A stretch of 64,000 bases of DNA from Verrucomicrobiia bacterium (GTDB taxonomy: Bacteria > Omnitrophota > Omnitrophia > Omnitrophales > Aquincolibacteriaceae), in NCBI GenBank assembly GCA_035495615.1, contig DATJFP010000088.1, positions 41,763 to 105,762 on the forward strand, read 5' to 3'. Below are positions 1 to 39,300 of this stretch, one piece after another. A model generated the notes under the pieces. It was not told the origin of the DNA and did no database searches. It saw nothing but the letters and a program-made list of their open reading frames with translations. The position numbers were made by a program, and so were the translations under genes. Each line of letters opens with the position of its first letter. Position 1 is the stretch's first letter.

Positions 1-300
1 AGGCGCGCGCGGCCGCGGAGCGCGCGGTTGATGTCGGTCTGCAGCGCGATCTCCCCTTCCCCGAGGGCTCGCAGGAACTGATACGCGTAGGCCATGACGA
101 TGGGATTGTTCTCGTCGACGGCCGCGGGAATCACCAGCTGCCCGCTGCGCAGGAGCGTCGAGATGTGGCGGGCATAAGCGCGGTAGATCGGGCCCGAGTC
201 GAAAAACTGATAGCCGAATTCCCTGGCCAGAGCCCGGGCGGCTGTCGATTTACCGGCCTGCGCGGGACCCGCGATATTGATGCCTTCGGGCGTTTCCAGA
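1..300 (-). other. Cytidylate-kinase-like P-loop NTP-binding module, truncated by the window edge
   Basis: Direct translation: ETPEGINIAGPAQAGKSTAARALAREFGYQFFDSGPIYRAYARHISTLL. Compare Cmk: ItIDGPxGAGKxTxxkxlAxxLgxxxLDSGAiYRxxA. The frame is still open at coordinate 3. Confidence 0.6.
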
Positions 301-9300: not shown

Positions 9301-12300
9301 TCGCTCTTATGGAAGAGCTGGTCGAAGCCGTCGGTCATGTACGTGCCCAGGTCCGTGTCCGGGCCGATGAGGCCGCGGTCGAACTGGAAGATGGCCTTGA
9401 TCTCGGCCGGCTTGTGCTTGGGAGAGGTTTCGAACCGCACACGGACGGTCTTGGCATCCACCTGCGCGACCGTGACCTTGTAGCCGGGATAATTTTTCCA
9501 GGCGTAGACAACTGGCTCTTCGAGCTTCACTTCCACGGGAATGATCTCGTCACGGGACGGCACCACTGACGGCGCCGCGTGCGCTTCCACTTCAGGCACT
9601 TCTTCTTCGGCGGCAACGCCCACGAGATACGTGCGCAGCGTCGTTCCCAGGATTTGGCCGCGCTGGGCTTCATCCGCGACAAAAGGCGCGAGCGACCAGA
9701 CTTTCGTGCTGCTCCTGCGGATGCCGATGAGTGCGGCCGCGCGGCGGGCGGTATCGCCGGCGGCAAGGCCGCGGCGGCTCGCGATTTCCGTGACCAAGGC
9801 TTCGCGTCCGTTGAGCCCGGCCCTTTCGAGGGCTTTCAGCTTTTCGGCAAAATCCGCGGCGGTCGCCGGTTCGGTCTGTTCTTTCAGGAGCGCGGCCAGG
9901 ACCTCGTCCACTTCCTTGAGAAGCGCGTCCGCCGCTTCCGGTGTGGGAGGCACTTCCGCGAGCGCGGCGATGAGAAGATCCACATTGTCCACGTAGCGCC
10001 GGGTGCCCGGATTGAAATAGCTGCCAAAGAAATCGTCGCGGAGCACCGCGGGATCGTGCACGCGCAGTTCCGTGCGCGCGAAACTCCATTCGCGGCGCGT
10101 CTCGTCTTCCTCGTCGCCGAATTCGCGCGCGGTGTCCATGGCGTCGATGACTTCGTGCACGGCGCCGACCGCGTCGGCGTCCAGGCCCGGCGTTTCTTCG
10201 ACTTCCGGCAGCGCTTCCGGCGTGAGGCCGGTGGTCGCGGGCGCGTAACGGCGGGCGGCCCAGCGGATAGCCTTTGCAGACAGGACAAAAAGAAGCACGG
10301 TCAGCGTGCCCGCCACCATCATGGTATGGAACGCCATGAAGTACCACGGGAAGCGGACTTCGTTGGAAAAGGCAAAGCCGGGCGGCGGCAGCGCGGTCAC
10401 CATGCCGTCACCGATGGAAATCGCGGATCCCACCGGGCTCATCGCGAACGGCGGGATGCCATAGATAAGGAAGACGACGGTCAGGCCCATGGTGATAAGG
10501 CCCATGGCGATGCTGACGCCTTTGGTCCAGGATTTATTTTTCCACAGGATGCCCGAGAACCAGGATGCGAGAGGGCCCATCATGAAGGCCACGCCGATCG
10601 GGAAGAACCACAGGAACCAGTGATAGTCGAGAAGCAGCGGCAGGATCGGCCCGAGAGCGCCGACCGCGGCAATGCGGAAGGCGGTCGTGACCGACCACCA
10701 GAGCAGCCTTCCCCGCTCGCGGGAAATGTCGCGGCGGATCAGGTCCGCGCGGCCCGGCGTCAGGCGCAGGGCTTCGTCGTAGGTTTCGCGGATGCCGCGC
10801 GTCACGAAGAAATTGTCCGCCAGTCCTCTCAGGCTAATGGGGATGGTAAAAAAGTACAAGTTGATCCGGAAATCAATGAGCCTGAAAAATCCGCGTAAGA
10901 GGTCCACCGCCCACATGAGGTGCATGGCCCGCAAGACAGGCTCCGGCCCGTACCATTCCATGAGCGCGCGCATCACCACGAAAACAATGCCGACCCCGAG
11001 GCCGATGAACCATCCGAACGGCAGGACCGTGGAGAAAAACGCGGCCATGCCCACTTTGGCGACGATCCATTGCGAGACGCCCGGAATGGCGCCGATCATC
11101 AGGATGCCGAGCATGGCGTGAAGGACGAGGCGGTACCAGCCGGTCCGCGCCGCCTGCCGGACTTTCGTGTCGCGCTCGATCATCGTCTCCGCCTGTTTTT
11201 CGGGCGTGGTTTCTTTCGTGGGATCGATCTCGTGGCGGAAATAGCGCGCGCCCCAGAAGCCGGTCAGGATCGCGGAAAGAATGCCCGTCAGCAGCGCGGC
11301 GCCGAAGACCGCGAGCGCGCCGAAGCCGAGGAGGAAATGCCCGATGAGGAAGACCGAGAAGAGACCCAGGCCGAACGCGAACGAGGTGCCGAACTCTTCG
11401 AAGTAATGCGCGAGCGGCAGTTCCGGCGATTCCGTGCCCGTCGATTTCCAGACCGGCTTGGCCTGCGCGGCCAGCATTTCGAAACGCACGGCGTTGGCGT
11501 GGTCGCCGCGGATGCGGGCCAGGCGCGCCTGCTGCTTGTAATGGGACACGAGCGTATAGTTGGCATAGAACTGGCGGAAGCCTTCGGCATTCGCGTCTTC
11601 GGTGAGGAACAACTTGTTCAGATAAATCAGCGTGGACATCACGGTCTCGGCCACTTCGATGGGCACGTCCGTGAAAAGGTAATTGCGCCATTCGCGGAAC
11701 ATCACGGTCGAGACGACGAGTACTGCGAGCGCCGGCAGGAAGACGGCCGGCGTGATGGGCAGAAGCCCGATCGCGAGCGGGATTGCGACGAACGCGCGCC
11801 ACACGTGTTTCGGGATGCCGAAGGTCCTATCGCGGATGCCCAGGTAAATCAGGATGAGCGTCGCGACAACGCCCAGGATCGGCGCGGTCCACAGGAGCGC
11901 GGTGAGCGACAGCCCCATAAACGGCACGAAGGCAAGGAGAATGGGCACGGCGAGCGCCAGGTATCTCAAGAACCCGGGCAGCCGGAACGTCCTCAGGAAC
12001 GGGAGCCGCACCGTGATCGGCCGCGGGCCGTTGCGCACCGCCCAGAAGAAGATGGCGGCGCCGAAGAACAGGGCGAAAAACAGAAGCGGCAGCGTGACTG
12101 AAGCAAAGATGCCGAGCGTCAGCGTAGCCGCGCTCAGGAATTTAAATCCGACGATGAGCGCGGCGATCATGCCGCCGATCGAGAACATGATGCCGAGCCC
12201 GTTGTAGAGGCTGCCATAGCGGCGGTCGAAAATCCGGTCCGCTTCCGAACGCATCTCTTCCTGGTCCTGCAGCCGGATATGCGCCGGCGCGTCTTCGGCG

Positions 12301-15300
12301 TTCGCATCCACGAACTGGTTCATGAGGCGTTCCCAGAGCGGCGCGACAAATTTCGGCGCAATGAGCGTGATCATGACCTGGAGGAAGATCGTGACGGCGT
12401 AAAGGGCGTAGAAGACTTCGGAAACGCCCGGGATCATGACGCTGATGAAGCCGATGAAGAGCAGCCGCTTCCAGATCGGCTCGCCGATGATGCCGCGCAT
12501 GACGAGGTTGTTCGGGTAGCGCGAGTATTCACTCGTGTTCCAGTGGCCGAGGAAACGCAGCGCCACGTTCGTCACGTCGAAACGTTTCCAGATGCTGACT
12601 TCGCGTTTGTGTTCGTCCGGGAAGTGCGCGGGCGTGCCTTCGGTGATCGGAACGTCGGTGAGCAGCGTGGCCGCGACCGGCAGCATGACGTTGCGCTCGG
12701 TGTCGGGCTCGGCTTCGTAGATGTTCGCGGACGATTCTTTTTCGTCGTGCGATTCCCAGATTTCCGGGTCCGCGGGATAGTCTTTCATCATTTCCGGGAT
12801 GAGGCCGTCCATGACGTCGGAACGCATGCCGAATTTACCGAACGCGCGGCCGCGTCCTTCGGTCGCGAACAGGACCACCTGGAAGAAACGCAGGGTGGCC
12901 TGGGCCACGCCCTTCAGGAAGGTGTACTGCGCGTCGCCCCAGTTCGAGTACTCGATCCACGGCTGGTACATTTTGTACTTCGCGTTGTTTTCCGAGTGCG
13001 ACATCTTCTGCACCGTGCGCAGCGCCGTATCGCGCGGCCACACGTTGTCTTTGTCCGAGATCAGGTGGTTCTTGATGCTGTTGACCGGGTCGCCGATGTT
13101 CAGCGGATTGCCGCGGTATTCGCCGTAATAGAGCTGGCCGTGGGCATTGCGGCGGAAGTAATCGCGGCCGGTCATGTCCGGCCCCGTGTCGCCGTGCGTG
13201 AGGTAGCGGTTCAGGTTGTAATACGACCACGGCTTTCTCACCTGCGACTGGCGCGGGAACACGTAGAACTTGTCTTTGCCGAAATCGCGCCACAACTCGT
13301 AGGCCAGGCGCGCCGTGCGCTGCTCGCGCGGGTCGCTGAGCGCGAGGAGGCGCGACATGTCGCCGTTGGCCGCGGCCCAGCCCGCGTCCAGGATGCGCTG
13401 GATCTGCGGCCACTGGCCGTCGGAAGTACCGCCGTCGAAAATGACGCGCATGTTGTGAAGCGGGTCCGGATCGTCCGGGTCCGCGGTGTCGAGAATGCCC
13501 TGCATGCTCTTGCGCGCGCTGTCCATCACGATATCGAGTTCGGTGATGCGCGCGACGTAGGTGATCGCGCTCTGGTCGATTTCTTTTTTGCCGACTTCAG
13601 GCAGCCCGCGCTCCATGCTGCCGAACGAGAACATCCAGGTCACGAGGCTGAAGCCCAGCGTGATGATGATGCGCAGAAGATAGAAGGTCGCGATCACGGA
13701 AAAGAGGTTGGCGCCCAGGATCAGGTAGCCGGAGAAAATGCCGCCCTTGATCAGCGTCAGCGCCGTGTCGATGACGAGCGGGTTCTGGCTGAACATGTAA
13801 CCGAACACGTACCACAGCGTGCCGAAGAGAATGCCGGAATGGAAGAGCTGCCAGAGCGTGGCCTTGCCGAACTTGCCCACGGAGGCCGGGACGTGCAGCG
13901 TGAACAGGTGCCAGCCGAAAATCGAGATCCTTCTTTCCACGTTCGGGCCCGGAAAGTCGTTGGTCCTGCCCCAGATCGACTGCGGGACCAGCAGGTCGAT
14001 GAGCGCGCCGGTAAGCGTCGGGATAAATCCCGCGGAAACCATTTCGCCCGCGAGCAGGATCGCCAGGCCATACACGATGGCGGCCAGCGGCAGGAAGGCG
14101 GGCAGCAGGAGTTGAATGATCAGGACCGCGGCGCCCGTGATGCCGATGATCGAAAATTTCGCGACCTGCGGCCGGTAATCCGCGTCGATGACCGAAAGCA
14201 GCCGGTAGGCCAGGAAGGCCGCGGACAACAGGCCTCCGAGCAGAAGGACAGCCGGCACCAGGAATTGCGCGGCGAAATAACCGATGAGGCCCAGTGTGAG
14301 CCCGGTGAGCACGCCCATGACCGTAAGGCGCTTGCCGATGTTCGCGTACGGATTATTTTTGGCGGCTTCGCGCCAGGCCACGCCCACGCGGTAGAACGGC
14401 TTGCGCAGCGTGGAAAGGCTGAAGAGCTGCATCACAAAGCGCGCGAGCACAAGCCCCAGGATGACCAGCGCATGCGTGGCCAGTGTCCCCGGCTTGTTCA
14501 GGTCGTACAGGCTGCGGAAAAAGCCCCAGACGCCCGAACGTTCTTCTTCGGGCAGGAAGCGCTGCAGGCGGCGTTCGATCTCCTGCCGGTGCGCTTTGTT
14601 GACGCTGCGCTCGGCATACGTAATGAAAAGTTCTTCGGCGTCCGAACGCATTTCCTCGCCCGGAGGCAGGTCGCCGCGGGTCTCGCGCAGCACCTGCAGG
14701 ATACCCACCCTGCGGCGCACGTCGCCGCGGATGTCCATCAGCAGCAGGAGTTCGGTCTGCGTGAGCGCGGGAATCGAGTCGGGAACCGTCGTCGGATCGG
14801 TCGCCTGCTGGAAGTAACGGCCCGGATAAAGAATGTTGATCTGGGCCTGGGCGCTCACGATGCGCAGACGCTGGTGCGCTTCCATCACGTCATCGACAAG
14901 CAGCCGGATGTCGTTGGGCAGGAGTTCGCCGCGGCGGATTCTGTCGACCAGCGCGGCCACGATGGCCGGGTCGGTCAACGAGCGGCCGCCGAGCCAGTAG
15001 CGGGCGCGGCCGAGATTCTCGGTATCCAGCCGCGAAAGCTGCTGGCTGACGATGCGCGTGAGCTGCTGGGTCACCATTTCGTTCAGTTCGCGGTCGGTCA
15101 CGTAAGGAGTCACGGGCCGCTCGGCCAGACCAATCTTCAGCCACACGTCCGCGAGATAAAGCGCGTGATCGATCGGGAATTCGTACCAGTGCATGGCGAC
15201 AATGGGATCGCGGTTGAAGTCCGCGAGATCGGCGCGGGCCCGCTGAAGCAGGACGCCGCCGACCGTCGGATCGACGAGCGATACCGCGATGGCCTGGGTA

Positions 15301-18300
15301 ACGGCCGCTTCCCGCTTCGCGCGTTCCTGCCGGATGATGAAATCCGCGGGATTGCGCTCGAAATCCGTGACCGCCCTCTGGGCCGCTTCGAGCTGGGGAC
15401 GCAGCGATGCGTCCGCGGCCGCGAGCGGCGTGAGACGCGTGACTTCGGCCTGAAGGCGCGTGCGTTCGGCATTGATGACCTGGATCGGAACGGTTTGATG
15501 GTTGTCCCGCGCGATCTGCCGCAGCCGCTGCGTGCTGAGCTGCTGAATTTCGCGCGCCATCCTTACCCACGCCAGCAAATCCTCGAGCCTGACGCCGGCG
15601 TTGCGGGTATTGTCCGCCATCCGGTAGGCCTGGTCGTCGGTGACCGGATAGCCGGCTTCGTTGAGCGCGGTCTGGAGCTGACGCGCGCTGTCGAGCACGA
15701 TCTGCAGGTCCTGCACGTCGCGCAGGATGACCGCGTCCACGCTGAAACCCAGGCGGTTGACGACCTGCTGGCGCTGATCGGGATCGGTGAATCCCCACGT
15801 GTCGTAAAGGCGCTGCGAAAAAGCAGTGATGCGCGAGCGGTGATAAAGCGGCAGGCGTTCCCGCGGGTCGCGGGGCAGGTTATAGACCTGGCGGTAGATG
15901 CGCTCCACCTCGTTCTGGATGGTGACGTATTGCATCACGACGTCGTCGACGGAGCGGCCCTGTTCGATCATGACGTTCACGTAGTAGCTGACGTCGAATT
16001 GACCGAGCGAAGCCGGGTAGCCGCGGTCGCGGATGTCGGGGCGCTGCAGGTAGCGCTGGTACGATTCCTGGATCTTCTGGGCTAAGGTTTCCGGAGTCTC
16101 TCCCGCCGGAATGCGGCCGCGCAGCGCCGTGCGCTGGTCCGCGCGCAATGTCCAAAGGTCGCGGACGGCCTGCGTTTCGCGGTAGGTTCTGTTGCGCAGA
16201 ACCTCCGCCTCGCGCTGACGCTGCGGCATGCGCGCAATCAAGTCGAGGAGCGGCCCGTTGGTGGAAAGGCGCGGCTCAAGCAGCAGGTTGAAAATTTCCC
16301 CGCGGCCCGGACGGACGTACTGCGAGACTTCCTGGTCCGGGCCGAATTGCAGGTACACCTGGTGGCCGAATCCCGAGGCAAAGGTCTGGTCCGCCATGCT
16401 GAGACGCGCGATGAGTTCGCGCTGCGCGGCCTCGCGGTAGTTCGGCGACAGCGCCTGGAATCCGGGCATCCGCATGATGCGCGTCCAGGCCGCGGACACG
16501 CGGTCGGTCGTGGCCTGGTCCGGCACTTCATGGAAGATGTTGGCCCAGGTCCACAGCAGGCGGCGCTCCATGTTGCCCTGCGGCCCGAGGTCGCGGTAGC
16601 TGGAGTCGCCGCGCGCCACGACTTCGAAGAAGCGCCGCATCTGGAAAATCTGCACGGGGTTCATGGGCTCGCTGGCGGCCCTGCCCTCGCCTTCGCGGCG
16701 GAAACGCTGCACGGCCGAGCTGATGTTGAGCGCGTCGATGAAGACGTGCAGGTATTCGTAAGAAGCCTTCTGGATGTTGAGCACGTCCTGGAAATATTCG
16801 ACGATCCACTGGCGGTCGCGGCCGAGCTCGTGCATGCGCACGACAAAACCGAGGCGCTGCCACGGGTCCATGACCGGGAACTGGTCGGCGGCCGCATCCC
16901 CGTAGGTGCGGCGGATTTCCTCGATGGCCAGCCTTTCCTGCTCCATGACGAAGCCGTCGTCGCGCAGGAGGCCGGCGATGATGTGGACGCTGGCTTCTTC
17001 GCTGTCGGAAACGATCCGGGAACGGACGAGCGTGATCCACGACGAGAGGTCGGCGAGTTCCAGGCGCTGGTGCACGCCGCCCTGGCGGTGATAGCGCATG
17101 TACACGGCCTGCAGCAGCATTTCCGTGCGGCCGCGGTCCATGAAGAACTGCCGCGCCTGGTCGATGTCCGCGAACTGGAATGGCTGGCCGGAAAGGCTGT
17201 AGCTGCGCATCTGGCCGCGCTGGTCGCGCAGGAACTGCGTGGCGAGCTGCACGGCGTCGCCGGGCAGCACCATTTGCTGGCTGAGACCTTCCCGAATGTC
17301 GCGGTCCGGATTGCCGAGGATCAGGTCGACCAGGCTGGGGTTTTCGGCGGAGCCTACCAGGTCGTCGTCGGTCACCCACGCCGGGCGCGGCGCGGTGCCG
17401 GCGCGCCAGGCCTGCAGCTCGGTGACCAGGCCGGGCCGCGTCGTGAAGCCGGAATCGTTCTGGGCCGAGAGGCGCCGGACGTTCTGGGCGAACTGGACGA
17501 GCTTGAAGAAATCCTCGATCGTGAAGCGGGTGCCGAGAAGCTGGGCGTAGGAGCGGTCCGTCCCCTCTTCGGGGATCTGATAAGTGCGGTAATAATAAAG
17601 GTAGAAGTACTTGACCTCACCGTCGGTCAGGCCGCCGTTGCCGCGTCCGGGCCAATGATCGCGCGCGGCGCTCTGGACGCGGAGAAGATCGGTCATGGTC
17701 TGCGTGATGTCCGCGGCCGGGAGGTCGATCCTGCGGTTGACTTCCTCGATCATGCGCACGCGGGAATCGAAAAGGCCCCACATGCGGCCGCGGTCGGCGG
17801 GGCTCATGGCGCGCAGCGCGGCGTCCGAAGCAAAAGGAGCGACCAGCGTGCCGAGGTTGATGCCCTGGTAATACTGCACCAGCTGCGGGCGCAGGTTGAA
17901 GATCATGTGCGCCAGATTGCGAGTATGCGCCGTGAACCGCTGCACGTCGGAAAGCGGCGCTCCCGTCGTCACGAAGTTCTCCTTGCGCGCTTCGATGGAC
18001 AGAAACGCGGTATAACCGATGAGGAAGTTCCAGCCGTCGTCCGAGCGGTAAAAGCTGTTCAGTCCCGTGATGGAAGCGCCGCGCGTGCGGGCCGCGGCCG
18101 CGTCGCCGGTATCGTTGAAGAGCTGCAGCTGCCCGACCGTGCGGTAGAAATCAAGGCGCGCGGACGGATTGGCGTCGATGGCGGGCAGGACGCGCAGGAC
18201 GTCGTCGACAATGCCGCTCGTCGCGCGCCAGCTCGCCTGGTAATCGACGAGATATTCCGTGCGGAACTGCACCCAGCCGAGCACCGCGCCGAGCGTGCGG

Positions 18301-21300
18301 GGATCGCTGGCAAAATTTTCACCGACCGTGAGCCGGTTGTCGCCGCGGCCTTCGAGGCGGAAATTCAGGAGCCGGTCGGCCTCGCGGAGAGCTTCGGCGC
18401 GGCGCGTCGGATCGCGGAACACCCACTGCAGCCGGGGAACGCGCAGGCGCACCTTTTCCATGTAACGCGTGAAGAGTTCGTCCCAATGCCGCTGGATCTG
18501 CGCGTTGTTCCAGCCCGGCTGGACGCGGGCTTCAAGCGCGGCGCCGGCAAGGAAACCGTTCAGGAGGCCGCTCGCCTGCTGGTCCGAGAAAAGACGGCGG
18601 TCGACGCGTCCGTCTTTGCCGATGTAACCGGTCAGGCGCGGCAGTTTGCCTTCGCCGAACGCGTCCGCGCCGAGAATCGCTTCATAGTACTGCTGGGCGT
18701 TGCGGAGCGCGGTGACGAGGCGGTCGTTGTTGGCGAGATAATAGTCGATCTGGCGCGTGCGCGATTCCGAAGCTTCCAGCGTCAGGGACGGCAGGCGCAG
18801 TTCAGGGCCGTCCGCGGTGGTCGGCGGAGGCGCGATCTGAGGCGCCCCTCCGAACGGCGCCCCTGCCCTCGCGGGCGGAGCGGCAACGACGCCGCGGACT
18901 TCGACGTCCGCGCCCGGCGGAATGCGGTTGGCCGTGCGCCAGGCGGAAAGCGCGTCGCGGTGCAGCATGGCGAAAGCGTCCAGCCGCGACCGTTCGCGCA
19001 AAAAGGCCATTTGCGATTCGCCCTGGCGGCCGATCAGGCCGTTCAGGCTCCTCAGGTGATTGGCCATCACGTACGTGCGTACGGCCGTGCCGCCGCCGTC
19101 CTGCGAATCAAAAGGCCCGTTGGGTCCCTGGCCCTGGAAATTGCGGATCCACGTGGCGACGGCTTCGGGATGCTGGCTCGCGAATGCCGCGACCGGCGTG
19201 ACGGTCAGATGGTCCATGCGCGGAGTGCCCGATTGCGAGCGGAACGCGCTGTTGCCCATGTTCGGATCGAAAGCGCCGAACGGACCGGAAACCGCGGACG
19301 GGCTGAAAACGCCAGGGCGCCCGTTCTGCCTTGCGTCGTCCATCATGGCGCGGAAATAATTGGCCTGCATTTCGCGGAATCCCGGAATGTTCATCTGCGC
19401 CCAGATCGGGGCGTTGTAGCTCATGCCGGACGCGCCGCCGGTGGATGTCGTCGCGACGCGCGCGGTCGAGCCTCCGGCGAAACGGTAATCCGAGGCCGTG
19501 AACGTGGGCGTCAGCCCCGTGAAAGCGCGCGAGTCGACGTCGAAGAGCGTCACGATGAGCGCGATGTCGGCGGAATCTTCGGCGAAAAGATCGGTGCGGA
19601 GATTCTCGCTCAGCGTGACGCGCTGAAGGTCCGCGCGCGGCATGAACGTCACGCGCGCCGAAGTGTGGAACAGGTGCCGGTCGCCGTTCAGCATGGCGCG
19701 GTAGCCTTCCCGCTGGGCGTTGATCGCCGCGATCGCCTGGTCGCGCAGGTCGGTCAATTCGCGCGGGATTTCTTCGCCCGCGGCGCGCAGGCGGGCGATT
19801 TCGCGGATCAGACTGCCGGCATAGCGCGCGAGCGACGCGGTGAGGTGGGCATTGTCGACGAACGAGATGTCGCCGCTTTGCGGGCGCGGGTCCGCGCGGT
19901 CGAGGTGAAGCCCGGGGATCAGCCCGTTCCAGCTCGACTGCGGGTTGCCCTGCAGGCGGACAAGCGTTTGCAAAATGAGCCGGGATTGCGCGGCCGCACG
20001 GGCGCGGTCTTCGGGCGCCACGCGGCTGTTCACGTCGCGCGCCTGGACGTGGCCGTAATATTCGAGAAGCGCGCCGATTTCGGTGGGCTGCGTGGTCTGA
20101 CGCGGCGCGGTCTGGTCCGGGCCGTAAACTGAATACGGGAAACCGGTCCTGGGATCGATGACCATGGAGCGGTCGCCGCTGCGGGCATCGAGGACGTCGT
20201 CGAACTGATCCACCAGTCGCTGCACGTCCGCGGCATCGGGAGCCGGTCCAGCCGGGCCTGCGGGTCCCGCGGGCCCCGTGTCCGTATCCATCTGTCCAAA
20301 GATCAACAAGACTAAAGGAAGCGCCATCATGCCGGCCGAGCCTGCATCCTGCACCGGCGGGCGGAGCGGCGCGAGAATCGGCGCGGCCCTGACGCCTGTC
20401 ATGGGATCCACGTCCACCTGGCGGGCGAGTTCGTGAATCGCGGCGGTCGTCAGTTCCGGCGGCATTTCCCGGCCGGAGTTGAGCACGCCGCGGAGCGCGA
20501 CGACTGAGGGTTTGATCGTGGAAACGTCTTCGCCGTTTTCTTCCATGCGGTCCGTGGCATGGGAGACGTTGCCCATCATGACGAGCGATTGGGCCCTGCC
20601 GAAATCGCGCAGGCGGTCTTCCGGCGCGCGCGCGTTGCGGGCCTGCGCCAGAACGCGTTCGGCGGCGTCCCGGTCTGCCCCCGCGTCCAGACGGTCGACG
20701 CTCGCGCTCATGGACTGATAAACCTGGATTTCCTTCGAGCTCCATCCGGACCGCGAGAGGTCGCCGACTTCGGTATGCACGCCGACGACGCCGAGAACAG
20801 TCGCGCTGAAGCGCATCACCGAGTCCGCCACCGTGATTCCGGTTTTGTCCTGAGCCCAGCCCAGGATGTCATGGCCGACGTTGATCGCGTGATGCTCGAC
20901 GAACGTGACGGGCGAAGCAACGGCGTTGGTGACGTCGACGTTATCGCCGCGGATCTGCGTGAAGACCCAGGAAGTGCCCTTGCCGATGTATTGCGCGAGG
21001 CCGTAATCGTGGACATTGCCCTGGGCGTCGGGATGACCGCCGGCCAGCACCGCGATTTCCGCGCCGACCGTCAGCATCATGCCGAAGGTACGGATGAATT
21101 GCAGCCAGAACTTTCCGGATGACAGGGTCCGGAACAAGCCAATGGCAGGCGCGTACGCGAAGCGCTGTGCGAGCGTCGGAATGATTACGGTCGGAGGCGC
21201 GCGGGGCGCGGCAGGCGGCACCGCCTCGACGGGCCGAGGTTCGTCGGCCATGCCGAGCAGCGCGCGAAGAACGCGCATTTCCGAGTCCACGCTGTAACGG

Positions 21301-30300: not shown

Positions 30301-33300
30301 TTCGCGCGCACTTCGTCCTGCTCGGCTTCGTCTTCGATGTTTTCCTGCAAGTACCGGTCGATATCGTCCTTGACCTTGTCGGGCGTCATCTTCAACACCT
30401 GGAAAAGATGGTCGGTGAGCGTCCTCACGTTCACTTTACCCCAATTGAGGCGGACGCGCGCCACATTGGCATCCGCGTCATGAATGGCCGTATCGAGATT
30501 GCCTTCGCGCAGCAGGGTCTCGGCCACGGGCTCGCTGAGAATAAGGCCCTTCTTGACCTGTCCCGATTTTCCGTTCGCCGTCAGCCGCAGCAGCTCCACC
30601 TGCATGGGCATCAAAGCGCCGGGCTTTTCCTCCGGGGCCGCCGGCAGCGTGTCTTCGGCTTCGCCCGGTTCCGGCAGGAGTTCTTCTTCGTTTTCCGTGA
30701 CCACGGCAGGCACGGCCACCGGCATTTCGGGGGTCACCGCCGCAACGGGCGCCACTTCGCCCGCTTCGCCGACGATGTCGGCCTGGGCCCGGGCCATGCG
30801 TTCCAGGCTTTCCTGCGTTTCCGTCGGGAGCCCGCTCGCGGCAACGGCGGCAAGAACGCCCGCGGCCGTGTCCGGAGTCATGTTCGTGATCTGCTGTTTG
30901 AGGTCCGCGATCGTGCTCGACATGGCCAGGGACATGCCGCCCTCGGCCTCGGACTTGGTGATGAATTCCCTTCTGGTTTCGTAAGGCCCTTCGAGTTCGC
31001 CCAGGTGCGACACGTAATCGGCGATCTGCCGGTTCACGGCCTCGCGGTCCGCCGCCTCGTACAAGCGCCCGAACTTTCTCTCGATCGCTTTCCGGCGCGC
31101 GTCGATTTGTTCGAGATGCTGCGTCAGGTCGAAATCATCGAGCGAAGCCATGGTCTGGATCTGGTCCAGCAGCGCCTGGCGGTCGAGCGCCTCGTCCAGC
31201 TCCGCGCGGAAGCCGCGGACCGTGCGCAGCACCAGTTTCTTGAAGCTCGCGTCTTTGGCGCGGCGGGCGGCAAGCGCGGCCGCGATCGGATCCTCTTCCG
31301 GCGGCGTCATGCGCAGTTCGGAGCGGCGCTGCTGGCTCTCACGCATTTCCGCCTTGAGGCCGGTAAGCTCTTCCTGCTTGGCCACATAAAGCGCGTCCAG
31401 ATGTTTGAAGCGGTTGTTGTCGGTGGCAAAGGCATTCAACCGTCCCTGGATCTGCTGGTAATGCTCGACGGTAAAGGCCTCGCCGTAATTTTCGCGCATG
31501 GAAGCGGCCGCGGTCCGGATGGACTCGAGATGCTCGGTGAAATCGAAATCGTCGATGTGCTCCATGGACGCGATCCGCGCTTCGAGGACTTCCGTATTCA
31601 AGAGTTCGTTGTCGATGCGTTCCAGGAAATAACCGACGGCGGCAGGGACCAGCGCCGCAATCTGCCGGTCGAGATCCTTGTCGAAGTCCGGCACCTGCAC
31701 CGACATGAGCGCGTCCGGAATCGACGTGTCCGTGCCTTCTTCATTAATATAGCGTTTGGCCGTGACGAGCGCTTCCAGGCGCAGCGGCACCAGGTGGCGC
31801 TGGGCGTCCGCGCCGATCTGCGGGCCGAATTCGTCGATGACAAGATTTTGAGCGGCGACAAATTGTTTGAGGCGGGCCACGGTCACGTCTTCTCCCGCGG
31901 CAAGGGGCTGTCCATAGAACCGGGCCATGATCGCCTTGGCCGGCGTGGGCTTTTTGCCGTGCGTGGCCTGGAACTGCGTCCGCAGCTGCACCAGCCCGTC
32001 CGACAATCTGCCGCGCGCCACGTCCAGGAGGCCGTTGACGCGGTTGGCTTCGATGAGCCGGTTCATGCCCGGCCCTTCGGCGAGAACTTTCCCCGCGGGA
32101 AGAACGGTTCCCACAAGCGTTTTTTGCGACGCCGCTTCTGCGATGGCGCGTTTCACGCGGCCGGCCGCCTCGCGCAAGACGCCGAGTTCCGAGAGGATTT
32201 CCTGCTGAAGGGCGCGGTAAGCTTCGTCGAGAGGTTTATAATTTTCGCGCACCGTAACGAGGCCGCTTTCGTCCTGGGCCGCGTAGGGGTGGTCCGCTGC
32301 GAGTCCTTCGAAGAACTTTTCGAGGACCCGGTCGACTTCCGTGGGATCGTCGGTTTTCGAGGGAAGGTCGTTGAGATTCCGGATCCGGCTCTGAATGCGG
32401 GTCAGCGCGCTATGCAGGTGGCCTTTTTTATCGGGCTGCGATTTGATCCGGGCCAGATTGCCGGCAAGCAGTTCTTCCATCGCCGCTTCCTGGTCCGGAT
32501 GCGTGCGCAGGAAATCCACGATTCCCTTGTTCCCGATAATGTCGGTGAGCCGCGACAGTTCCGCCTCGACGGTGCCGTGCATGTCGCCCTGGACCTGCGC
32601 CAGCATCCCGCTCACTTCAGGCCTGAGGGTTTTCGCGGTTCCGTCCAGCGAGGCCTGCAGCGCGATCTCGTCGAGCCTGGCCGGGGTCATGTCCTGGAGC
32701 GCCTCGTTGTCCATGTGCAGCGCGGTCAATTCCGCCACCACTTTTTTCGAGATCAGAACATGATAAAGGTCGCGGATGTCGGCCGGCATGTCGTCAAAGC
32801 CCTTGCCGCTGGTCGAGGCCCGCATGGCCGCGGCCTTCAGGGCGTCGCCGGTCGTCTCTTCCAGCTTTTTCCCGGTCGCGTCGCCCTGGATGTCTTTCAG
32901 GTACTGGCGGACATTGTCCGCGATGGCATTGCGTTTTTGGGGTGCGAGGACCGTGACCACCTGGGTTTTCAAGTCCGCGGGCACGTTCTTGAGCAGGAGG
33001 AGCATGCGCTCGACCGTGACCACGGCATTTTTCTTCTCGCTGATGTTTTTCATCCAGCTCTGGACTGCGGCGGTCGTGGCCTTGAAAATCGCCGCGGCTT
33101 CATCGGCTTTGAGGGTGAGCTCCTGGCGCAGCGCGTCCGCGCTCTTGATCTTGCCTTCGGCCGTCGGATAATCGCGTCCCGGCTGGGCCTTGGCTTGATC
33201 GAGAAGCGAGAGCACTTCCTGGATTTTGGCCAGCCGGATATCCTCTTCCGTCGGGGCCGCGGCCGATGGAGGCGCCACTTTTCCGGGCGTCTGCAGTCCC

Positions 33301-36300
33301 ACGAAAGAAACGTCATCGTCGTCGGCAAAAGGATTCGCGCGTTCCAGCCTCTTTTCCAACCCGTCTCCGGGGATCGAGGAGGCGTCCCGCGCGGCCTTGG
33401 CCAGCGCGTGCACGGTCTGATCCAAAGGCAGGGTGCGCGTCATCTCAACCAGTTCTTCCATGCCCGGGATCGGCATCACGCGGCCCACGACCGAGATCGT
33501 GGCCAGCGGCTTGCCGGGTTTGTTGGCGAGTGTCGTCGTCCGTATCGTGCTCAAACCGGCAGGCGTGCTCTTGTCGCCGCCGTCGGAATAAACCAGCGCC
33601 CGCGTTCCGGGAGGCACGTCCACCTGGGTGCGGTTGTTGCTGCCCAGCAGAAGAGCATCTCCGGAAAGGAATTCGTCGTGCTTGTGGCGGACGCCCAGAT
33701 AAAGCTCCAGGTTCTCCTGCGTTGTGAAGCGCGGAAGCGTCTCGCCGAAATCTTTGGCCTCCACCTTGCCGTCCGGGAGAATGAAAATGCCGGTGCTGTC
33801 GCCGTAATCGAGACCCAAGCCCGCGTATTTTTTCTTATCCGGATCGGCAATCTGCCGTGTTTCCGGGTATTCCCAGACAAGACGGATCGTGAGGGTGGTC
33901 ATGGCCCGCGAATGAATCTGCCGGGCCCGTTTGGCCTCGGACAAAGCTTCATTGGCCGCATCGACCGCGTCCTCGAGGACTTTCAAGGCGGCCTCGGGCG
34001 TTTGCGCCGCGAGCAGCTTTTCCCGGGTGGCTTCCTTCTCGATGGCGGCGATCACGATAAGCGCGGCCTGCCGCCCGTCCGGCTGCCCTCCGGCACCGTC
34101 CGCCACCGCGATGAGGCCCCGGTCCGGCAGGTTGAGAATGGCGTCTTCGTTGTTCTGGTCCGCCAGCGGTTTATTGATGCGGTACACTGCGGGAGCCGTG
34201 TAAGCCCAGGTCGTAAAACCCGTAGCCTTGCCTTCGATAGCTCTCTTTTTCGCGTCAAAATCATCTCTTACCCAAGGCCTGATCCGCTCCGGAAGCGCTT
34301 CGATCTGGCCTTCGACCGCCGCCAACTCCCCCGCGCTTGAATTCAGCGTCAGCGCGTCGACTGCCGCCCGCACCGGCATGTAACGGCGCCGGTCTTCCTG
34401 GATGCGCTGGGTAATCTGCAGCTTCTTGGCATCGGCCGCGCGGCCGATCTCGTCTTCGAAGCGCTGATAAACGCGCGGCGTGGTTTCTTCTTTGGCGCTC
34501 TCGACGTTTTCGTCGACGATGGCGATGCTGAGGATGTTGATGTCCGCCTTCTGCAAGTCCTGGATAAATTGCCGGAGCCGCTGCTCATCCCTCTTATCCT
34601 TGGCCGCGATCTTTTCTTTCTTGGCCCGTATGGCTTCCTGGACGTCGGCACGCTGCCGCAGCCGCGCATCCGTCAAAATCTTGGCCGCTTCCCCTTCGAC
34701 ATCGGCTTCCGCGACGGTTCTGGGGTCCAGGGCTGTGATCTTGCTAATGGCTTCGAACGCCGCCTCCTCATCCGCGGCAACCCGCGTCCGGATGGCCTCG
34801 TTCTTTTCGGCGAGCCGGGCCTGTTGCAGCCGGGCCGCGGCGTCCTGCGCGCCGTTCAGCCGGTTTTCCAGCGGTGTGACGTCCGAAAACGCATTGAGTG
34901 GGGTCAGCGCATCGACTTTGGGCGTAATGTCCGCTACGATCAGGCCCACGACTTCCCCGATTTCCCGCTTCAAAGCCGCCTGCAGTTCCGTGTCTTCCTT
35001 AATCTGGTCCGCGCGGCTGAGCAGCGCTTCGGCATCCGAAACCTGCGCCGCGGCAACATTCTTGCGGAGGTCTCCCAGGAGCCTGCGTACGTCCGCCGCG
35101 ATGTCGTTGTTCGAGCGCGAACGATCCCCGATCGACTGCCGAGCGGCTTCGAATTCTTCTTTGAGCGATTCTTTGAGATCTTCCCGGTCCGCGACACGCG
35201 CTTCCTGAGCCTGCACGTCCGATTCGTTTTTGACCCGGCGGAGCTGGATCTTGATATCCGCCATCAGGTCGCGGTCGAGGCTCTCGCGCTGCGTGATGGC
35301 CTCTTCCTTGGCTTCCACCTCGCGCAAAAGACGCGCCGCCCGTTCGCCCCGGGCGCCGGTCACGCGCGCCCGCAAGCCCTGCGCGGCGGTAAGGTCGCTG
35401 CGGTCAGTGAGCTGCGCGATCTGCGGTTCGATCGCATCCATGATCTTTTCCGCGGCCGCGTCGATCTCGCCTTTCACCTTGTCTCTCAGTACGGCGCCCG
35501 CGATCTGATCCGCCTGGTCGGCAAGGTCCTGCATGGTGCGGACATAAACGCCGTCGATCGCGGCCGTTTCCGTAATTCTCAGGCGCACCGCGGCGGCGGC
35601 CGTGTCATCGGCCTGGATGCGGCGCTGGATCGCGCCGCTGATGTCATTGGCTTTTTGCGCGAGGCGGTTGGCGCGCTCGGTCTTCGCATTGACGAAACGG
35701 CGGCGCTGCGCCTCGACTTCCTCTTCGGTGCTGAGTTCGCCGAGCCGGTCGAGAGACTCGTCGATGTGAGCGGCGACAAGCACCATTTTGCGTTCGATGA
35801 GCGCCTCGAGAGGGCCGCGCATTTTCGCGTTCTTCAAGCCGGCCAGTTTTTCCGTGACGGCTTCGACGTCCTGCAGCGCGGCCGTTTCCGTGTCAAGGCC
35901 CTGAAGCGCCCCGCGCACGTCCTGGTCGATCGCGCCGTCCTGCCGGATCCGTTCCTGGATCGCGGTTCTTTTCTGCGTGGCAAGATCAAACAGCTCGGGA
36001 ACCGATTCCGCTTCCTGCATCCGCGCTTCCTGCGCGGCAACGTCCTTTTCTTCGTTCAATTCCGTGAGCGCTTCCAGTTTTCCCCGGATGTCGGCCGCTA
36101 CAAGCCCGCGCGACTGCTCGATCGCGGCAACAGTCCTGTCGCGAATGGCCACGGTCACGATTCCCTGCGCCCGGGCTTTCGCGGTCTCAAACGGCTTCAC
36201 CGTTGCCGTGGCCGGCGTTTTGGGAAGGCCGCCGAGGATTTCCCGCGCGGTTTCTTCGTCGCGGCGTCCGCGGTCGCGGATGCGCGTCTTGATGTCGGCG

Positions 36301-39300
36301 GCGAAACCTCCGATGCGCTGACGCTGCCGTTCTTCGGGCAGCCGCGCCACGGCCGCATCGACGTCCGCTTCCGTGCTCTGTTCGTTGGCGGCGAGCGCGT
36401 TCATGGCCGCCTGCGCGTCCCGGATCAGTCTCGAATCTTCTTCTTCACGTTCCCGCAGGAAATCGCGGCGCGCCAAAGCCGCTTGCCGCAATCCTTCAAC
36501 TTCGGGCGATTTGGCGTTCTTCAGCCGGTCTTCCTGGGCGCGGATGTCGTTGACGTCTTCCGCGGCGGCGATTCGTTCCCGGATGTTCTGCACCACGGCA
36601 ACGCGCTTGGCCTCGATCTGCGGCCTCGCTCCTGTTTTCAAATCCTCATAAGGTACGGCTTCTGCCCGCTCGGCATAAGATTCGATGACTCCGAGCGGCA
36701 CGCCGTCTACGCCAAAGCCCGTCACGTCGCCGACCAGCCGTTCCATTGTTCGCTGGTAGTAATCGTAAATCTGGGCTTCCATCTGAGTCCGCTTGGCCTC
36801 GAGCCGCGGGAACACGAAAAGAAGGAGCGCGTGAAGGCTGGGGGTCGATTCGGTTTGAGCCAGGAGGTTCTTTTTCGCGCGCGCGTAGGCGGTTTGTTCC
36901 GCCGCGGCTCCGGCCTCCTGGTATTCTTTCAGCGCGCGGACGAATTCGTAGGAACTCTTCTGGTCCAGGGGCGGCATTTCCGTGGAAGTCAGCATGGCCG
37001 CGGCTTCGGGCACGATCTGGTCCGGCTTGTCGAGCTGTGCCGCCATGGCCGAGATGAGCCGCGATTCGTACTCGGCGAGGGCGGCTTCAGTCGTGCTGAG
37101 GCGGGCGCCGATGCGCGATTGAAGTTCCGAGACAAGAGGCGCGGGACTGTCGGCCGTTCCGGCAAGCGCCGCGGCTTCCTGGCCCAGGCCCTGGAGGCTC
37201 TGGTAATTTTCGTGCGGATCGCCGCGGGTCTGCTCGAGACGCTGGGCAATGTCGCGGAACTTGATCGTGTTATCGACCTGCGGCGTACGAACTTCGCCGG
37301 GCAGCACTTCGAAAAAGGCAATGACCGCCAGGATGGCGTCGAAATTCGCGGCCACATCCCCCATGTGGGGCTGCAGCGCGCCTTGCAGGAGGGTTTGTCC
37401 GCGCGCGGCAATGATGCCCGGAATCTGGGGCCTGTCCGCTTCGGAGGCCGCGCCGCGCTGCGCGTACGTGTCTACCAGGATCTGCGGGCTCATGGCCTGC
37501 GCCGTCGTGGTCTGGATCAGTTGAAACGCCCGGGCCAGCTTCAGGACGTTCAGGGCGTCGTTATTTTCAGGAGAAAATTTCGTGGTGTCCCACGTGATGG
37601 CGGCCAGACGCTCGAAGGAGTCCGCGCGGTTGATTTGCTTGGCCAGCCGGCCGAAGCGGGATTTTTCCGTGCCGCGCCATTTGATCACTCCCCAAATGGC
37701 TCCGGCTCCGGCCGCGAGACCCGCTGCGATTAAAGCGGGCCCGGTAAGATTGGGCGCGTTGACCGTGACGCCTCCTGCTTGTTCCGCCAAATACTGATAA
37801 AGTTCGTAAACGCCGTAAACCGCCACGCCGGCGCCGGTGAGAACTCCCAGGCCGAGCAGAATGCGGTTTCTCCAGACGCGGGCCGTCTCTTCCCGTCTTT
37901 CCAGTTCGGTCTTTCTCGCGCGCGCGCCGTCCTGCTCCGCCGCGGGCAGATCATTGATCACAGCTTCGGTAATATCGGCCGACCGCCGGGCTGCTGCGAC
38001 GGCTGCGCGCGCATCCTCGATCTTCTTGAGAGCGTCGCGCTTTTCCCGGGCCTGGTCCCGCTCGCCGTCGTTTTCGAGATCCGCGAGCACCGCGTCGGTA
38101 ATCTGCGCCGACTGCGTGGCCGTGGCGACCGTACTTCTCGCGGCTGCAAGGCGCGCCGCCTGGATCGCCGTCCTCTTGCCTTCCGCGACTCCGGCGAGCC
38201 TCGCCGCTTCCGTCGTCTGAGCTCCTTCCAGACGCGCCGTCTGCGCGGCCACCTCTTCGATCGTGCTGGCGTCGGTCAATGCCGTCAACTTGCCTTCGAT
38301 GTCCGCCACGATTTGCGTGACTTTGCCGCGGATTTCATCTTCCACCGCCCCGCGAGCGGCCCCGTCTTTGATGCCGGCCGCCAGAGGCAGAAGAGCTTCG
38401 GCGTCGCTTATTTTCGCGGCAGCGGCATCGATCTGTCCGAGCTGTGTCCGGATATCGCGCGCTTTATCCTCGTCACCCCGCAGCCGGTCGCGAATCTGTT
38501 CCACGGCGGCATCCGCCTGGTCTTTCACCTGGATGCGGAGACGTTCCTCCAGACCGTTCACAATGGCGGCGAGCTGATCTTCCGTGGCCGTTTCCAAATC
38601 CAGGGCTCCGATCGCGCGCTTGGCCTCAGCGACCGCGCGGCCGTCCGCTTCGATTCTCGCCTCGATGGCTGCGCGTTTGGCTTCCGCCAATTCCCGCAGC
38701 CGCGCTGCTTCGGGAGTCTTGGCATCTTCGAGGCGTGCGGTCTGCGTCACCACCGATTCGGGAGTGTTGAGTTCGGTGAGGGCATTCAATTTGCTTTCGA
38801 TGTCGGCGACGATCTGCCCGACTTTGCCGTTGATCTGGCTTTCGACACTGCCGCGAAGCGTCGCGTTCTGGATCTGCGCGGCGCGCGTCAGCAGGGCTTC
38901 CGCGTTTTCGATCGTGGCGCTTTCAGGCTGAACCTGCCCGAGATCCGAAAGGATGGCGCCGGCTTTTTCGTTGTCGCTGCGGCCGCGCTCGCGGATCGCG
39001 GCAATCTTGGCATCCGCTTCGTCGCGCACATGATCACGCAGGCGGGCCGGCAGCCCGCTGCGAATGGCTTCAACGGCGTCTTCCGCCGCCGTGTTCACAT
39101 CAATGTCGTCGATCTGGCGCTTGGCTTCGACTATAGCCCGGGCATCGGCCCCGAGCCTGTCGCTGATCGCCTGTTTTTTCTGTCCCGCCAGATCGCGCAG
39201 GCGTCCGGCATCGGCAGCGGCGGCGCCTTCGAGCCGCGCAGCCTGGGCATCCGGGTCAGCCAGCGCATTCAGTTCCGTCATGGCGTTCAACTTGCCTTCG

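Follow-up and report, generated by a model that had tools for sequence, protein, structure and literature searches.

A giant Omnitrophota membrane protein with a putative glycosyltransferase core distantly related to cyclic glucan synthase

The stretch of DNA considered here (the window, 64,000 nucleotides) carries on its minus strand a giant gene at 3..48530, which begins with an ATG at 48530 preceded by an AT-rich upstream region and remains open to the window edge, giving at least 16,176 codons and placing the C-terminus beyond the window. An ORF scan showed the strand to be free of stops from 48545 to 3 and onwards past the window end, and it is this open stretch of 16,181 codons, together with the GC content at codon positions 1, 2 and 3 (0.68, 0.43 and 0.79), that establishes the frame. 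Residue indices start at nt 48545, where the open frame has its first codon, so that Met1 is index 6. Over its first 480 residues the sequence is identical to a protein from a JGI metagenome (P0001), a flanking AMP-ligase is 48-61% identical to those of Omnitrophota MAGs, and seven syntenic giant ORFs (L001, L004, L013, L019, L027, L005 and L081) share the N-terminal "head" domain; flanking genes and conserved synteny assign the host to Candidatus Omnitrophota. Taken as a whole, the window probably holds most of one Omnitrophota giant gene, encoding a protein that bears a signal peptide, is anchored in the membrane at several places and has a core containing a glycosyltransferase (GT).

The N-terminal segment (48438..48530, minus strand; MIDWQTRRAKPWLR-TVALLVALIFIV-HDVVWA followed by DGGG) is hydrophobic on the Kyte-Doolittle (KD) scale over 48417-48500, with a peak of 2.04, and had been taken for a membrane anchor at 48450-48500 in a sequence-only reading of this DNA. 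It looks instead like a cleavable Sec signal peptide, with TVALLVALIFIV as h-region and a site between VWA and D, and nearly all of the 45 head-domain homologues keep a signal peptide whose site is AxA-like, the n/h/c organisation and small-residue site being common to the syntenic and the stand-alone (~500-residue) forms. The head itself (46326..48437, minus strand, ~700 residues) is a conserved domain of EreA/ChaN/TraB (TIKI-like) fold into which a large helical segment is inserted, and its family was found in Omnitrophota only.

Hydrophobic segments were defined by a 19-residue KD mean of at least 1.6, and the runs so obtained coincide with the helices located by eye in the sequence-only reading, all of them in a single minus-strand frame and hence in one giant protein. 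A helical hairpin at 37680..37865 (minus strand) consists of two Gly/Ala-rich helices with zero charged residues (37806-37865, index 3561-3580, KD 1.83; 37680-37739, index 3603-3622, KD 1.78) separated by a 22-residue loop. A single transmembrane (TM) helix, NIIIAGAVVGVAAVIAGGYIWN, at 27105..27173 (minus strand; KD peak 2.39, summed dG -0.05) has K/R clusters on both sides and then a Pro-rich linker. An uncharged block of 72 residues at 21501..21716 (minus strand; index 8944-9015; KD run to 21722, values up to 2.14), part of a 77-residue run without D/E/K/R that has 3 K/R upstream and 1 downstream, is most simply read as three TM helices, from a possible 2 or 3. The helix cluster previously read at 20290-22130 comes down essentially to these three, the remainder being marginal; a segment at 20289..20345 (minus strand; index 9401-9419, KD 1.62, Asp at both ends) probably does not span the membrane and is treated as non-TM because parity needs it. 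A run at index 3730-3749 with two acidic residues, absent from the earlier list, is probably the one false positive.

Large soluble regions lie on either side of the core. The one before it (14526..18512, minus strand; index 10012-11340) is conserved, with 23-35% identity to P0061, P0052 and P0048; it has no Pfam match and a two-sequence profile retrieved nothing from the PDB. In the C-terminal region (3..10262, minus strand), which is at least 3,420 residues long, a block at 2121-4328 is conserved (index 14740-15475; 26% identical to P0049 2160-2844), and a cytidylate-kinase domain with its P-loop begins at the window edge (168-281); it scored 38.9 bits for Cytidylate_kin against a cut-off of 26 and also matched PDB Cmk entries and TIGR00017. 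The description of this C-terminus as enzyme-like is thinly supported: the kinase P-loop alone passes a curated threshold, the ARMT1-like and CCA/PcnB-like matches being sub-threshold. Its proposed cytoplasmic location is most likely right, given the K/R-rich flank after the last helix, the kinase P-loop and a GT-anchored helix count that ends inside.

The polytopic core (10263..14489, minus strand) consists of dense helices split by a soluble stretch of 376 residues at 12486-13613, the ~1-kb loop already seen by eye, and its hydrophobic cluster exceeds any null by far. The N-terminal bundle (13614..14489, minus strand), homologous to P0048 846-1062, was modelled as seven helices; its loops are alternately K/R-rich and K/R-free, a pattern that favours an odd number. 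The C-terminal bundle (10263..12482, minus strand) comprises about 14 helices and one probable re-entrant stretch, and includes a conserved PGxxE turn (12411-12437) and a conserved loop motif, TLIYLNKLFL (11604-11633). It is collinear with P0049 and with P0047, a partial ORF of 932 residues cut by the end of its 2,951-bp contig, except for an insertion at index 12075-12288. Helix numbers were partly chosen for parity (7, or 8-9, in the N-terminal bundle; 2 or 3 in the block at 21501-21716; 4, 5 or 6 in the insertion), and the resulting 21-helix core model, with the GT loop set cytoplasmic, obeys the positive-inside rule, 55 K+R falling in inside loops versus 6 outside. An exhaustive phmmer search over 1.84 billion representatives yielded only 16 relatives, collinear across the full length of the core; the module recurs in other large proteins, among them a complete gene of 5,233 residues (P0061), and in the partial ORF P0047.

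The soluble stretch within the core (12486..13613, minus strand) reads as a GT-A glycosyltransferase domain of GT84/GT2-like type. It carries the motifs VIFDGGTSD (13419-13448; GT2-like by sequence reading, without alignment support), ISDKDN (13035-13064), YQP (12942-12968), FGKFG (12825-12845), ESHDE (12735-12758) and SIWKRFD (12573-12599). A family profile (A1) had a single match in the PDB, cyclic glucan synthase (Cgs, 8RF0/8RF9) at residues 577-780 (596-799 in 8RF0 numbering; E=2e-22), and the close-subfamily profile alone matched the same domain at E=2.3e-12. The sequences are too dissimilar for a pairwise search to detect the relationship: BLASTP of the giant protein alone against Cgs gave E=0.011 and 0.073, which is not significant, and phmmer with the single sequence found no Cgs match. 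The AlphaFold model of the core, built on an MSA of only 16 sequences, has a mean pLDDT of 54 overall and 65-83 in the GT part; Foldseek with it ranked Cgs first (E=5e-6 to 3.5e-5), followed by hyaluronan synthases, BcsA, Fks1 and chitin synthases, with E=8e-4 to 0.05 for processive GT2 synthases. Residue roles are known for Cgs, in which the GT domain and every soluble domain are cytoplasmic (PMC10901819). In the alignment Cgs D624 corresponds to the D of ISDKDN and the catalytic D739 to that of ESHDE, and the two Asp positions that coordinate UDP are retained, as is the Asp acting as catalytic base; shared with Cgs are the DxD Asp, the catalytic-base Asp (SHD), QP, GK(x)G and the tryptophan of RW. 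Unlike in Cgs, the RW arginine is replaced, by Ile in the giant protein and by Lys in its nearest relatives, and the primer tyrosine (Tyr694) sits in a loop insert that the giant-protein family lacks; given these losses, activity could be altered or lost. Profile and fold together suggest that the core is a very divergent, membrane-embedded GT2/GT84-type module related to Cgs.

An important consideration is which parts of such a protein face the outside. In the simplest topology the signal peptide would export the N-terminal part, the chain would cross twice at the hairpin and remain outside, the helix at 27105-27173 would carry it inside, three crossings at 21501-21716 would return it to the outside, and seven crossings of the N-terminal bundle would bring it inside again, leaving the GT domain on the cytoplasmic face between ~7 and ~14 helices and the fused C-terminal enzyme array in the cytoplasm. 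Index 37-3560, 3623-7124 and 9016-11352 would then lie outside, and the inside would hold the GT loop together with index 7148-8941 and the whole chain from 12762 on. We infer the side of each individual soluble block, and from parity totals of ~9,400 residues outside and >5,500 inside, with which two features conflict. The earlier claim that huge segments lie on both sides of the membrane follows by parity from the single helix, which must flip the chain, but the simplest model is contradicted by the hairpin, whose outer flanks hold 4 and 5 K/R and whose loop has none, a pattern that argues for cytoplasmic flanks.

It may be asked whether, as in Cgs, every large soluble block faces the cytoplasm, in which case the hydrophobic segments would be mere tethers and the N-terminal segment no export signal. 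Besides the Cgs precedent and the hairpin charges, this is favoured by a borderline PP2C_2 match at index 4796-4886, inside a block modelled as outside, by L084, in which no TM helix separates UDPGP and UGDH from the head to which they are fused, a head with a similar, signal-peptide-bearing N-terminus, and by P0048, whose pre-core region follows an initial Met with no signal peptide before it; a genuine start there would place this region in the cytoplasm. A large class of proteins that have TM helices alone, with their domains in the cytoplasm, has also been described (Nielsen & Lui 2026, 10.64898/2026.06.07.730766). However, the helix at 27105-27173 must switch sides unless an undetected helix compensates, and there is none with <1 charge between index 44 and 3560; the signal peptide is conserved even in stand-alone heads; and the charge pattern of the N-terminal bundle points to an odd helix count. 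In P0061 a signal peptide is followed by ~3,600 residues without a hydrophobic segment, the exported part being joined to the GT domain by three helices, and the K/R-rich loop after the first of these fits passage from outside to inside at the first core helix. An entirely cytoplasmic arrangement thus seems unlikely.

The isolated stretches (hairpin, single helix and three-helix block) could alternatively lie buried as helices within soluble domains, or have arisen by chance in a protein rich in Ala, Leu and Val, leaving only the core in the membrane. Shuffling outside the core and the index 8942-9015 cluster gave 4.5 expected 19-mers with summed Hessa dG <=4 against 4 observed, and whole-protein shuffling gives ~17 KD runs >=1.6, so composition alone lends the isolated helices no significance; none of the three is conserved in relatives, homologue comparison finding no hairpin there. 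Against natural sequence of the giant-protein family they do stand out: 13,098 residues of soluble regions in homologous giant proteins contain no segment >=1.7 and only two marginal ones (1.60 and 1.65). Charges are absent over 19-22 positions in the isolated segments and over as many as 77 residues in the block, the Gly/Ala content is of GxxxG type, K/R clusters flank immediately, and relatives bear isolated TM helices of their own at other positions in the chain. Membrane insertion is preferred, and the chance reading appears quite improbable.

The possibility that the core is an orphan permease, a transporter of an undescribed family with the loop as accessory domain, might be entertained on its ~21 helices, far above the 6 of Cgs, and on the absence of any Pfam or NCBIfam match to the core (10263-14489), GT domain included. 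It was rejected as very improbable: the loop matches a GT catalytic domain in profile and fold with catalytic motifs retained, no transporter occurs among the sequence matches, in keeping with the earlier remark that the core resembles no known transporter family, and the fold search offers only weak ABC-transporter matches at E >3. That the giant frame arose from chimeric assembly, or is merely high-GC DNA without coding function, is scarcely credible. GC does climb, from 53% in the flanking DNA to 63% within the gene, unlike at homologous loci, and the plus strand too has very long ORFs. But GC3 increases gradually without a step, the plus-strand ORFs run antisense in codon register with the gene and are themselves interrupted by stops, the 16,181 codons are free of stops and show strong codon-position GC periodicity, and four separate modules recur in the same order in other giant proteins.

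Like Cgs, the giant protein has a GT-A catalytic domain between TM helices of a very large multi-domain chain, but the cyclase (alpha/alpha-barrel) and GH94 phosphorylase domains of Cgs were undetected across its 16,181 residues and thousands of N-terminal residues are probably exported. BcsA, hyaluronan synthase and chitin synthase share the design of a cytoplasmic GT-A domain docked beneath a helix bundle; these processive synthases, however, had no match in the family-profile PDB search, and the giant protein lacks PilZ or another known accessory domain and has a degenerate QxxRW. The GT domain would take a nucleotide sugar, probably UDP-glucose, for a glucan-type polymer, and the many core helices may form a channel for polymer export, like that of BcsA or hyaluronan synthase, which is purely conjectural, or may serve simply as a compact anchor, as they do in Cgs. 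In favour of the GT reading, P0061 is preceded by a gene for a secreted DUF3131+Glycoamylase protein and immediately followed by one for a fused UDP-glucose pyrophosphorylase with two UDP-glucose dehydrogenase domains. Glycoamylase (PF10091), found in that neighbour and in the distant family member P0058, is a domain type that also occurs in Cgs-type proteins.

Giant membrane proteins that combine a signal peptide with scattered TM helices have already been described from Omnitrophota, with >10,000 residues and a mean of 22 helices at >=10 kAA (West-Roberts et al. 2023, 10.1101/2023.11.21.568195; Nielsen & Lui 2026). The present protein resembles them in host, size, signal peptide and TM helices, in its fused enzyme-like domains and in having a sequence that is largely unique, and the question of which parts face outside is common to all. 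Unlike them it is almost Pfam-dark, and SecA_DEAD, dockerin, TSP3, GT1/GT5 and PGM domains were not found in the visible 16 kAA; neither study names a Cgs/GT84-like membrane GT core or an EreA/ChaN/TraB-like head. The type of giant protein is thus known, and the new element is the probable Cgs-related glycosyltransferase identity of a core that Pfam and NCBIfam do not match.

The giant gene was located by a six-frame scan, which found a stop-free frame of 16,181 codons on the minus strand running from 48545 down to 3, where it exits at the start of the window, so that the C-terminus of the protein is missing. The first ATG lies at 48530 and is preceded by an AT-rich intergenic region, and since GC content at codon positions 1, 2 and 3 is 0.68, 0.43 and 0.79 this minus frame can be taken as the coding frame (residues are numbered here from its first codon, which makes the initiator methionine residue 6). 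Hydrophobic segments were called at a Kyte-Doolittle mean of at least 1.6 over 19 residues. On the minus strand they comprise an N-terminal segment (48417-48500), a hairpin (37806-37865 and 37680-37739), a single helix (27105-27173), a block (21501-21722) and a dense series, hereafter the core, that extends from 14489 down to 10263 and is interrupted by a soluble stretch of 376 residues; all the places at which the sequence-only reading had reported hydrophobic stretches reached this threshold. The isolated segments each contain 19-22 uncharged residues, are rich in Gly, Ala, Ile and Val and have clusters of K/R on either side, which is the textbook appearance of transmembrane (TM) helices. 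A shuffle restricted to residues that lie neither in the core nor in the 8942-9015 cluster gave an expectation of 4.5 hydrophobic 19-mers, where 4 were observed, and a shuffle of the whole protein gave about 17 runs at 1.6 or above. No segment reached 1.7 among 13,098 residues of natural soluble sequence from homologous giant proteins, and for this reason the hairpin, the single helix and the three-helix block were accepted as probable TM segments. A stretch at residues 3730-3749 was rejected as it has two acidic residues inside it, and the segment at 20289-20345 (minus strand, residues 9401-9419) is marginal. Directly after the latter comes a low-complexity linker, a GPAGPAGPAGP repeat (about 20253-20285, minus strand, residues 9421-9431).

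In the core Pfam gave no match, either with 17 chunks of the protein or with pieces of the core at E up to 5, and NCBIfam gave nothing (residues 11340-12780 in each case). Phmmer with the whole giant protein against PDB sequences found nothing beyond a kinase P-loop, the soluble loop of the core (residues 11645-12020) had no PDB match as a single sequence, and a metagenome scan with an alignment of this loop (A4) found nothing. A word-indexed homologue search with the core returned 0 hits among 8,000 candidates, in which saturation by hydrophobic words is suspected, and the same search with a second alignment of the loop (A1) returned two proteins only. An exhaustive phmmer search recovered just 16 relatives among 1.84 billion cluster representatives, collinear across the whole core, and these constitute a small, newly defined family that Pfam has missed. 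Its members include P0049 (4,150 residues), P0052 (6,825 residues), P0061 (5,233 residues, a complete gene), P0047 (932 residues, a partial ORF cut off where its 2,951-bp contig stops) and P0048, which covers the helix bundle on the N-terminal side of the loop.

Alignment A1 has invariant D (in ISDxDN), QP, N, GK, SxD, E and W positions, and its profile matched cyclic glucan synthase (Cgs) in the PDB at E=2e-22, over the stretch that forms the GT84 glycosyltransferase domain of that enzyme. A profile of the close subfamily (the giant protein and its four nearest relatives) gave E=2.3e-12 at PDB database size; pairwise comparison of the giant protein with the Cgs segment gave E=0.011 and 0.073 only, with both alignments on the right motifs. 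TM helices flank the GT-A domain on both sides. An AlphaFold model of residues 11590-12780, built from a 16-sequence alignment, was poor overall (mean pLDDT 54) and fair in the glycosyltransferase part (65-83), and in a Foldseek search its best PDB fold matches were again to Cgs (E=5e-6 to 3.5e-5), followed by hyaluronan synthases, BcsA, Fks1 and chitin synthases, all of which, like Cgs, are membrane-embedded GT-A synthases. The residue roles published for Cgs (PMC10901819) assign UDP binding to D527 and D624, the part of catalytic base to D739 and that of the RW arginine to R773. In BcsA the nucleotide-binding aspartates are D179 and D246. ISDKDN of the giant protein aligns with the LDAD of Cgs that contains D624, in a column that is invariant in A1, and ESHDE aligns with the SHD that contains D739, its S and D being likewise invariant. 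Further upstream VIFDGGTSD resembles by eye the first aspartate motif of GT2 enzymes, 'DDGSTD', a likeness read from the sequence and not from an alignment to D527. The Q(Q/R)xRW motif (R773-W774 in Cgs) is incomplete, for the Trp is invariant and the Arg is replaced by Ile (SIWKRFD); P0047, P0049 and P0052 have Lys at this position, whereas more distant members have Arg. It is concluded from profile and fold model that the core is a highly divergent membrane glycosyltransferase module of GT84/GT2 type, predicted to transfer from a nucleotide sugar.

Several differences bear on whether the giant protein is itself a Cgs. In Cgs the glycosyltransferase domain is followed by an alpha/alpha-barrel cyclase of GH189/Glycoamylase type, whereas neither PF10091 nor its kin was found at E<=0.01 in the 16,181 residues visible of a protein whose C-terminus lies past the window; the C-terminal GH94 phosphorylase domain of Cgs is similarly without a Pfam, NCBIfam or PDB match in this visible part. 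Cgs has six TM helices and keeps all its soluble domains in the cytoplasm, but the giant protein has about 21 helices in the core and, beyond it, a signal peptide and six further helices. Finally, the primer tyrosine of Cgs (Y694, in the IF1-homology loop) sits in an insertion relative to the profile of the giant-protein family. As the cyclase and the GH94 domain are lacking from the visible part, and the six-helix architecture and the primer tyrosine are lacking too, the giant protein was rejected as a Cgs, and what is new is a Cgs-like core with an expanded helix bundle in a small, previously unannotated family. The sequence-only reading recognised no transporter family in the core; the alternative of an unknown transporter was rejected because the loop matches a glycosyltransferase domain by profile and by fold, with the equivalents of D624 and D739 retained.

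The compact relative P0061, found on five contigs, combines the head of the giant protein, i.e. its conserved N-terminal domain (46% identity), the region preceding the core (residues 10011-11227) and the glycosyltransferase core. At its locus, L084, the upstream gene (6043-8247) encodes a signal-peptide-bearing DUF3131+Glycoamylase protein. The gene directly downstream (25757-32365) encodes a protein of 2,202 residues in which a second copy of the head is joined, with no TM helix between, to a UDP-glucose pyrophosphorylase (UDPGP) and two UDP-glucose dehydrogenase (UGDH) domains. PF10091-type domains may act on beta-1,2-glucans, and PF10091/DUF3131 may be linked to beta-1,2-glucanases. The neighbourhood fits a UDP-sugar-dependent glucan pathway, and the UDPGP and UGDH functions beside P0061 lend contextual support to the predicted glycosyl transfer from a nucleotide sugar.

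An important consideration is on which side of the membrane the remainder of the chain lies. As the glycosyltransferase loop must face the nucleotide-sugar pool it was set as cytoplasmic, and it thus offers a fixed point from which to reason the sidedness of the whole chain. In a 21-helix model of the core on this basis the inside loops carry 55 K+R in 311 residues and the outside loops 6 in 106, in keeping with the positive-inside rule that the sequence-only reading had proposed applying to the loops. Seven helices precede the glycosyltransferase domain in this model, so that the chain would come into the core from the outer side, and once past the last core helix it would be inside. P0061, in which a signal peptide is followed by about 3,600 residues without a hydrophobic segment and then by one helix, a K/R-rich loop, a helix pair and the glycosyltransferase domain, by analogy provides independent support for entry from outside. 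Signal-peptide-like N-termini with a small-residue cleavage motif were present in nearly all 45 head homologues, stand-alone ones of about 500 residues included. Counting by parity, the signal peptide would place the chain outside, the hairpin would leave it there, the single helix would bring it in and the three helices would take it out again, after which the seven core helices would return it to the inside and the fourteen further helices would leave it inside. Residues 37-3560, 3623-7124 and 9016-11352 would then be outside, and residues 7148-8941, the glycosyltransferase loop and everything from 12762 onward inside. This parity model is inferential throughout, and helix numbers at three places were picked with parity in mind. 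Three observations speak against it: the charges around the hairpin indicate cytoplasmic flanks, a borderline PP2C_2 match (33888-34160, minus strand), which scores 24.2 bits where the cut-off is 24 and covers positions 9-100 of a 209-position profile, falls inside an 'outside' block, and the L084 fusion joins a signal-peptide head to UDPGP and UGDH without any TM helix. West-Roberts et al. (bioRxiv 10.1101/2023.11.21.568195) met the same paradox, with glycolytic domains predicted to be extracellular. On parity the proposal that huge segments lie on both sides of the membrane is likely, with the hairpin charges, the PP2C_2 match and the L084 fusion in disagreement.

The C-terminal 10 kb or so had been read as enzyme-like and probably cytoplasmic. 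The location stands as probable, since it fits both the cytidylate-kinase P-loop found at the window edge and the model anchored on the glycosyltransferase; the enzyme-like character is weak, the ARMT1-like and CCA/PcnB-like matches, unlike the P-loop, being below threshold. In P0049 the glycosyltransferase core is followed by HAD, cytidylate kinase, APH and HD domains. When genome and metagenome contigs were scanned with the C-terminal 1,000 residues, no relatives were found. The region preceding the core (residues 10012-11340) and a block at residues 14740-15475 are conserved among relatives and have no match to anything known, a two-sequence profile of the former finding nothing in the PDB. 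Gly, Ala, Gln, Pro and Tyr abound in a low-complexity linker, some 64 residues long, at 6306-6497 (minus strand, residues 14017-14080).

Upstream of the giant gene, at 48797-59663 on the minus strand, are genes for a response regulator, a PAS histidine kinase, an S33 hydrolase, an AMP-dependent ligase, patatin/cNMP, PilZ, YajQ and SPOR proteins, and a GH1 gene is among the upstream genes as well; the two-component pair, which lies next to the giant gene, is a candidate for its regulator. The best 20 matches of the AMP-ligase are almost all from Candidatus Omnitrophota MAGs, in which its best relatives are 48-61% identical, and the head family (about 700 residues, 46326-48437, TIKI/TraB-like and a candidate protease) is annotated from Omnitrophota only; by these affinities the giant gene appears to be encoded in an Omnitrophota genome. 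Among the ligase relatives a conserved gene order leads into a long ORF in seven loci, the first 730 or so residues of which are 48-64% identical to the giant protein in five of the seven and 25-32% in L004 and L027; beyond this point the long ORFs of all seven were unrelated to it by tblastn. Synteny upstream in related MAGs is illustrated by L081 (1-10000), with SPOR, PilZ, YajQ, PilZ, patatin/cNMP-binding, AMP-ligase, S33 hydrolase, PAS histidine kinase and response regulator genes. After the head (63% identical) L081 has, at 10001-18886, separate ORFs of 691, 1,160, 571, 235 residues and more, the first two overlapping in different frames, which would be due to a frameshift or an assembly error, or else to a gene that is truly split. 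[quoted passage not shown] With a signal peptide, multiple scattered TM helices and a length above the 10,000-residue mark, the protein studied here belongs to this known class, whose members are already documented. It differs from the 'Archaeovorin' type, whose SecA_DEAD/preprotein-binding, GT1/GT5, methyltransferase and NUDIX domains gave no match at E<=0.01 in the visible 16,181 residues of a gene that extends past the window.

The integrity and nature of the gene have also to be considered. GC content is 63.3% at 1-48545 as against 52.9% in the flank (48546-64000), an excess that is absent at the seven homologous loci and might suggest an assembly chimera, but GC3 climbs gradually along the gene, from 0.70 at the 5' end to 0.85 (flank about 0.65), and without a sharp step a chimera is unlikely and was dropped. 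Twelve plus-strand ORFs of 750-1,900 residues (the largest 1,886) tile 165-47228, all in the codon-aligned antisense frame, and could be mis-annotated by gene callers; they stay open because the giant gene has just 21 TTA, CTA and TCA codons (8, 1 and 12 respectively), and they were dismissed as its antisense shadow. A repeat adhesin was rejected as self-BLAST shows no internal repeats in the protein; tandem repeats in the gene are trivial ones only. There are 0 Cys codons among the 16,181. Cysteine is scarce in the large relatives too (2 in the 6,825 residues of P0052, 1 in the 5,233 of P0061) and is present in flanking genes, e.g. 9 in 423 for GH1.

A wider reading, which we consider unlikely, takes the giant protein for a polysaccharide factory, so far undescribed in kind, that spans the membrane as a single polypeptide. 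Its Cgs-like glycosyltransferase would be supplied by a fused cytoplasmic array of enzymes, the first of them being the nucleotide kinase domain at the window edge. The polymer would be exported through the helix bundle, expanded to about 21 helices, and then be processed, or displayed on the surface of an epibiotic or predatory nanobacterium, by the more than 9,000 extracytoplasmic residues that are covalently attached, the TIKI/TraB-like hydrolase head among them. If this were true, some Omnitrophota giant proteins would make surface glycans instead of degrading those of prey. Apart from this reading, the identity proposed for the core already moves the functional hypothesis for this subclass away from cell-wall degradation and towards glucan synthesis. 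Both P0061 and the partial P0047 are far easier targets for expression than the giant protein. Giant Omnitrophota proteins are among the largest known and most of their sequence is without annotation; the largest membrane block of one of them now has a testable identity as a Cgs/GT2-type glycosyltransferase, and this Cgs-like core provides a concrete handle on both the function and the topology of these proteins.
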